The notes under the pieces: generated by a model
Told to the model about the DNA's origin: nothing
Seen by the model: the letters and a program-made list of their open reading frames with translations, nothing else
Database searches by the model: none
Program-made: the position numbers and the translations under genes
Sequence record: BH153119.1
Origin: a phage
Strand: one strand, 5' to 3'
Length of the DNA stretch: 396 bases
Shown here: one piece after another, positions 129 to 219 of the stretch
How the letters are laid out: the number at the start of each line of letters is the position of its first letter
Position numbering within the stretch: the first letter of the stretch is position 1

Positions 129-136
129 TAATGTGT

Positions 137-143
137 GAGGTGA
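137..143 (+). promoter_or_regulatory. Shine-Dalgarno-like ribosome-binding site (GAGGTGA) 9 nt after the upstream stop codon
   Basis: GAGGTGA at 137-143 is complementary to the 3' end of 16S rRNA in the Firmicutes-type extended SD (GGAGGTGA). ATG at 146-148 follows after a 2-3 nt gap, slightly short but within functional range. The position right after the stop of the upstream CDS is typical of operon-internal translational coupling. The ATG it serves is followed by a stop after three codons, which lowers confidence that this is a functional RBS. Confidence 0.4.
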
Positions 144-145
144 AT

Positions 146-219
146 ATGAAACATTAAACCGTAAGCGTAAAGCACAACGACACAAAGAACGAGCTAAAAG
201 ATTGCTATTGAACTTGTAG
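146..219 (+). pseudogene. Possible disrupted small ORF encoding a highly basic peptide (frameshift relative to its apparent start codon); alternatively a sequencing artefact or non-coding
   Basis: ATG 146-148 reads ATG AAA CAT TAA (stop 155-157). Frame 1 from 139 to 216 reads GEYETLNRKRKAQRHKERAKRLLLNL, then TAG at 217-219, and contains no ATG/GTG/TTG before 202. It has 9 Lys/Arg plus 1 His in 26 codons and low third-position G+C (7 of 26), similar to the upstream CDS. Adding one A to the AAA run at 149-151 would join the ATG to this frame (M-K-T-L-N-R-K-R-K...). This is inference, not observed. Confidence 0.2.

Follow-up and report, generated by a model that had tools for sequence, protein, structure and literature searches.

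A ribosome-binding site that opens only a three-codon reading frame in a 396-nt phage sequence belongs to the annotated RB49 gene RB49p054, very probably split by indel errors

The window analyzed here, meaning the whole 396-nt stretch of phage DNA, raises the question of what a strong ribosome-binding site and a start codon are doing in front of a reading frame of three codons, beside a very basic open frame that has no start codon of its own. The letters are as the first-pass annotation had given them, and they can be read directly on the plus strand, where GAGGTGA (137-143) is followed by ATG (146-148) and by AAA CAT TAA (149-157). The startless frame is likewise present. Frame 1 has no stop between 139 and 216 (GEYETLNRKRKAQRHKERAKRLLLNL) and closes at TAG (217-219) with no in-frame ATG, GTG, or TTG, and K or R account for 9 of its 26 residues (10 with H). 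The first-pass annotation took this arrangement for a small basic protein gene broken by a 1-nt indel or a mis-call, with a genuine three-codon mini-ORF as the other possibility. Open stretches of this size are ordinary in shuffled sequence, with 99.7% of mononucleotide shuffles of the window holding a stop-free stretch of at least 26 codons on the plus strand, and the meaning of the frame therefore had to be settled by sequence comparison.

Comparison identified the window as DNA of phage RB49 (Krischvirus, Straboviridae). It corresponds to positions 33613-34012 of NC_005066/AY343333, complement strand, between nrdD and nrdG, both of which lie outside the 396 nt. A blastn search of the phage collection returned 59 matching phage records, all with names or hosts of Escherichia or Shigella, and the records followed further among these are Krischvirus, RB49-like T4-type phages. 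RB49 was the best match (98.5%), and each of the 47 matches ranked from RB49 to GoldenSnicker covered exactly 400 nt of its record against the 396 nt of the window. Global alignment of the window with RB49 gave 395 matches, no mismatches, and 6 gap columns. The closest natural relatives after RB49 differ from it across this stretch by 6 to 23 substitutions and by no indels. Judged by the alignment, the window is RB49, or an isolate indistinguishable from it, plus six indels. The plasmid collection and the complete genomes of E. coli hold no match to the window, which is therefore not a prophage or plasmid copy. A permissive Rfam scan of both strands returned two chance-level matches only (E values of 3.8 and 4.6), far under the gathering scores, and no RNA element was found.

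To the window, ORF055 contributes its last 41 codons and ORF054 its first 85, and the 17-nt spacer between them contains the Shine-Dalgarno sequence GAGGTGA. The upstream part, in frame 3 from 3 to 128, is the 3' end of the RB49p055 orthologue (IFKVVAVAHTQFVAQAPDEEFIIYNIGNASSHFHNVLYRDL) with its stop TGA at 126-128. The peptide is identical to the C terminus of RB49p055, and the DNA from 3 to 128 is 100% identical to RB49 without indels. ORF055 ends in two in-frame stops, TGA TAA (126-131). The Shine-Dalgarno sequence of the RB49p054 orthologue stands at 137-143, and the base aligned to 146 is the start of the RB49 coding sequence (3146-3673 of the fetched RB49 locus, L001), so that the ATG at 146 occupies the syntenic position of ORF054 with ORF055 directly upstream. 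The RB49 annotation and the alignment thus bear out the proposal that a real protein-coding gene begins at this ATG, just downstream of the preceding coding sequence. A 51-aa ORF at 111-266, antisense to ORF054, was considered spurious; no contig on record encodes it.

In RB49, this gene, RB49p054 (NP_891625.1), encodes a hypothetical protein of 175 aa that starts MKSLNRKRKAQRHKERAKKIAIELVERE... (in a second rendering, MKSLNRKRKAQRHKERAKKIAIELVEREDNYLSTGRLYTFHALIDGKPVLHNHD...). An intact ORF of 175 to 186 aa, whose start is the homologous ATG or the codon preceding it (MSKLLN...), was found in all 16 of the relatives compared (14 phage records and 2 IMG/VR contigs). GAGGTGA stands in the same place before the start codon in every one of them, and in Ec_Makalu_002 it carries a ribosome_binding_site annotation. 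The TAA of 155-157 and the TAG of 217-219 occur in frame in none of the relatives, whose ORFs all continue to 175-186 codons. The conservation is frame specific. Among RB49-type alleles, the variable sites fall 11, 12, and 34 at codon positions 1, 2, and 3, and dN/dS is 0.09 to 0.21, which indicates purifying selection. The intact orthologue that had been suggested at the syntenic position in relatives therefore exists. With a conserved ORF and frame-specific constraint both in evidence, the comparison goes against the first-pass condition for a chance open frame, although the ORF concerned is that of a 175-aa protein. The accompanying expectation that such a gene would be poorly annotated did not hold, as RB49 and the other annotated Krischvirus records among the matches already list ORF054 as a hypothetical protein. 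The Krischvirus orthologues include Phi1 ORF054 (ABR24563.1) and JSE EpJSE_00055.

Relative to RB49, the window carries five single-base deletions and one insertion, all past position 151 and all within ORF054, and the protein is recovered in pieces between them. Frame 2 supplies the ATG and codon 2 (AAA) at 146-151. Codon 3 (TCA) has then lost its T between 151 and 152, where RB49 reads AAATCAT and the window AAACAT. This first indel is present in neither RB49 nor ELT4, and each of the 16 relatives has MKSLN or MSKLLN here. Because the T is removed, the true frame moves to frame 1 and the start codon is left with the three-codon ORF ATG AAA CAT TAA. That a single base was missing beside the AAA run had been deduced correctly from the letters, and the RB49 alignment confirms it. 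The suggested repair of AAA to AAAA restores the right frame but supplies the wrong base: the lost letter is not a fourth A, which would give MKTLN, but the T after AAA (ATG AAA TCA TTA AAC, MKSLN).

The basic frame is the continuation of this gene. Its segment at 154-198 in frame 1 matches residues 4-18 of RB49p054 exactly (LNRKRKAQRHKERAK), and it is by this homology that the frame is recognized as real coding sequence. The second indel lies in the A run at 196-199, which has four A's where RB49 has five. It shifts the frame again and so produces the false stop TAG at 217-219. Past residue 18, the true continuation of RB49p054 is KIAIELVEREDNYL..., and the RLLLNL tail of the supposed 24-residue peptide is read out of frame. 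The product is a protein of 175 residues, not a peptide of 24.

The remainder of the window follows the same course. Residues 19-43 (KIAIELVEREDNYLSTGRLYTFHAL) match frame 3 exactly at 198-272, where two isolated A's are missing one codon apart (indels 3 and 4, at 272/273 and 275/276 within 272-276; RB49 ATTGATTGATGG, window ATTGTTGTGG). Residues 46-69 (GKPVLHNHDCLALFHEIKPIHREW) match frame 1 exactly at 277-348. The fifth indel is an extra G at 347-350 (GGGG in the window, GGG in RB49), after which the alignment and the peptide pieces place residues 70-75 (DDNKAK) in frame 2 at 350-367. The sixth is in the A run at 364-366, three letters long where RB49 has four, and a peptide match puts residues 75-85 (KGQYFLTCSCG) in frame 1 from 364 to 396, where they run off the end of the window. 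The exact pieces of RB49p054 lie successively in frames 1, 3, 1, 2, and 1, each switch of frame falls at an indel, and residues 4-85 are recovered exactly except for two lost at indels 3 and 4. The window shares with RB49 all 395 aligned bases, the Shine-Dalgarno sequence, the start codon, and the upstream neighbor ORF055. It differs from the intact gene in its six 1-nt indels, in its five or more frame segments, and in ending at residue 85 of 175. Because the six indels break the frame, the window contains no intact single-frame ORF of about 175 to 186 codons. On this comparison of sequences, the locus is still the RB49p054 gene, the window as written cannot encode the protein, and a single ordinary gene has yielded both the three-codon ORF and the 26-codon basic frame as fragments.

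The question then becomes whether the six indels are errors or mutations. In the corresponding 400 nt of nine natural relatives, 145 substitutions and not one indel were counted, whereas the window has six indels and no substitution (Fisher test, 7e-11, a contrast to be read qualitatively, as the counts are not phylogenetically independent). Exact-string scans were made with two window-specific strings that together span three of the six indels. A 31-mer across indel 1 was absent from IMG/VR, the JGI metagenomes, and the GTDB genomes, and a 30-mer across indels 3 and 4 was absent from IMG/VR and the JGI metagenomes. The six events are confined to the final 245 nt, and their absence from the first 151 nt has a probability of 0.06 if they were spread uniformly. 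Such clustering at one end is consistent with quality that falls off within one read, and also with relaxed selection acting on a single gene. Five of the six events are deletions, four of these five remove an A, and homopolymer runs of three or more hold three of the six (P = 0.07 by chance). With only three of the six events in runs, a pure homopolymer-error signature of the 454 or Ion Torrent kind was not established.

Indel-dominated errors are found in the late portions of Sanger reads, at homopolymers in 454 and Ion Torrent data, and in uncorrected nanopore reads. The window resembles frameshift artefacts of single-pass or uncorrected reads in that its differences are indels only, mostly deletions and half of them in homopolymers, and in that its source is a single short record of 396 nt with the events clustered toward one end. 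The likeness is a general one, not tied to a specific error model. It is the pattern of the differences, indels only, no substitutions, and unique to this copy, that leads us to speak of error rather than mutation. The six indels are thus very probably an artefact, whether of sequencing, base calling, or assembly or noise introduced in some other way, and are unlikely to be mutations. The window would then be a low-accuracy copy of 400 bp of RB49 in which five single bases were lost and one was gained, all inside ORF054. The first-pass suspicion that the break might be a sequencing mis-call agrees with the indels-only pattern. Desplats et al. 2002 (J Bacteriol) reportedly carried out random partial sequencing of RB49, and a short RB49 record of low quality could stem from such work.

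Were the indels real, the source of the window would be a derivative of RB49, natural or made in the laboratory, whose ORF054 has become a pseudogene through decay, leaving at most a three-codon ORF. Such a history would account for the confinement of all six events to ORF054, with none in the 128 nt of ORF055, and the gene may indeed be dispensable, given that the region between nrdD and nrdG is variable and accessory and that the gene occurs as two very different allele types. Decay is nonetheless improbable. It would have to bring about six frameshifting indels without one substitution relative to RB49, in a stretch where natural relatives have gathered 145 substitutions and no indel, and in an ORF that all 16 relatives keep intact under purifying selection. 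Once the first frameshift had occurred, selection would not favor five further indels with every other base left identical, and the window-specific strings scanned for were seen in no other record or contig. If the indels were real all the same, a conserved and widespread gene of the C-x-C-G-x-x-G-C-x-G family would be dispensable for phage growth, and the Shine-Dalgarno sequence and ATG would drive only a three-codon ORF.

Two further readings are less likely still. The first is a separate, very basic gene of some 24 codons (MKTLNRKRKAQRHKERAKRLLLNL) that a single indel has inactivated, or else a genuine three-codon regulatory mini-ORF; in its favor, the Shine-Dalgarno sequence, the ATG, and the basic stretch are real and conserved. 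It is highly implausible that either exists, since the ORF from this ATG has 175 to 186 codons in every relative, the stop at 217-219 occurs in the window only and is owed to the A5-to-A4 deletion, and the C-terminal RLLLNL is out-of-frame sequence. The mini-ORF is refuted by the relatives, none of which has ATG AAA CAT TAA. Programmed ribosomal frameshifting or transcriptional slippage, with a recoding site at the A runs, could in principle restore the frame, and two of the six events do lie in A runs (196-199 and 364-366), the first event falling directly after AAA. Recoding would, however, have to change the frame five separate times, in both directions, within 215 nt, and three of the events are at non-slippery sites. 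In the relatives, one frame encodes the protein throughout, and no frame change at a slippery site conserved among them was found, which makes recoding barely conceivable. The reading as a real gene seen through sequence errors keeps from the first-pass interpretation the real gene, the real 1-nt deletion, and the probable mis-call, and departs from it over the base, the size, the class of product, and the annotation status.

The surroundings of the gene can be described from RB49 itself. The RB49 annotation places nrdD, ORF055 (178 aa), ORF054 (175 aa), ORF053, and nrdG on one strand, and the order nrdD-055-054-053-nrdG was seen in the 14 annotated relatives fetched. Outside the window, RB49 has an intrinsic terminator after nrdD (L001 2494-2515) and, directly after it and before ORF055, a perfect TTGACA-N16-TATAAT promoter (L001 2532-2559). 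A second promoter-like site follows ORF054 (L001 3678-3706). ORF055 and ORF054 are probably cotranscribed from the consensus sigma-70-type promoter just past the nrdD terminator, and they look like a bounded two-gene unit that would be read by the host sigma-70 polymerase. A promoter of this type would suggest early expression of the two genes. The unit resembles the promoter/stem-loop cassettes that have been described for RB49 and Phi1, with nrdD named among the associated genes (PMC2839356). The gene downstream of ORF054 is annotated inconsistently: E26 and Skers have a 75-codon ORF right after the ORF054 stop (2174-2401 of L012 and L016), and RB49 (L001 3749-3901) and most others have instead the 50-codon ORF053, which overlaps the start of nrdG by 11 nt.

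Two allele types of ORF054 occur in Krischvirus, one of RB49 type and one of JSE/Makalu/KFS-EC/KMB43 type, with dS between them above 1 and a protein identity of about 50%. The N-terminal LNRKRKAQRH and the central NKAKGQYFLTCSCGxAGCAGYWEP are nearly the same in both types (L001, L005, L008, L009, and L010), which differ by replacement of roughly residues 14 to 60. This pattern looks like mosaic exchange within the gene. In KFS-EC, the gene has a tandem duplication of five residues (DDSCY DDSCY). In the contig IMGVR_UViG_2974573495_000001 (L003), the motif reads TCLCG in place of TCSCG, an S-to-L change between the first two invariant cysteines, and the serine of TCSCG is not invariant across the wider family. 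A word-indexed protein search with RB49p054 returned six relatives only, all at 54% identity or less, and missed RB49p054 itself and its orthologues of more than 90% identity, which GenBank phage genomes do contain. A protein that this search fails to return may therefore exist all the same.

The intact RB49 protein matches the profile of PHROG 8242 end to end (E = 7.4e-83, residues 1-173), a family to which no function is attached. A profile search of 1.84 billion cluster representatives returned 137 at E ≤ 0.001, mostly of 150 to 220 aa, and the family members include 140-kb Escherichia myoviruses and Burkholderia pseudomallei. The motif C-x-C-G-x-x-G-C-x-G is invariant in 63 aligned members, where it lies within F-T-C-S-C-G-x-A-G-C-A-G-I-W...K-x-R-K-x-T-V-E-W-R. 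The window shows only its C-x-C-G (...FLTCSCG, 364-396), and the remainder falls beyond the window end. RB49p054 has no model in Pfam, NCBIfam, or PADLOC and no relative among PDB sequences (best E value, 0.17), BFVD returned unnamed family members only, and papers on RB49 and Phi1 do not mention ORF054. A function is given by none of the families, structures, or papers searched.

An AlphaFold2 model of a 54%-identical homologue, made with the family alignment, reached a pLDDT of 94.5, and the basic segment forms part of its predicted N-terminal helix (residues 3-17 of P0001). By this predicted structure, the intact protein would form a compact domain of the alpha/beta type whose N-terminal helix is basic. 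Among the first 25 family members inspected, this helix was seen only in the Krischvirus-like proteins and a few others, namely, P0001 to P0007 and P0012. The three invariant cysteines of the motif could form a small metal-binding knuckle. Functional statements on the intact protein draw on the predicted structure and the conserved motif, and from these we would tentatively guess that it is small and carries a metal-binding cysteine knuckle and that its basic helix, in Krischvirus, could contact nucleic acid or an acidic partner.

The gene is one already annotated as hypothetical in RB49, and its reading frame is disturbed here by six indels that are very probably errors. One similarity search settles the case, and no new gene, peptide class, or regulatory mini-ORF emerges from it. 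The case is a caution in that a startless frame for a "basic peptide" beside a strong ribosome-binding site was the N terminus of a normal gene split by indel noise. What interest remains lies not in the present finding but in RB49p054 and its relatives, with their invariant three-cysteine motif and confidently predicted fold.
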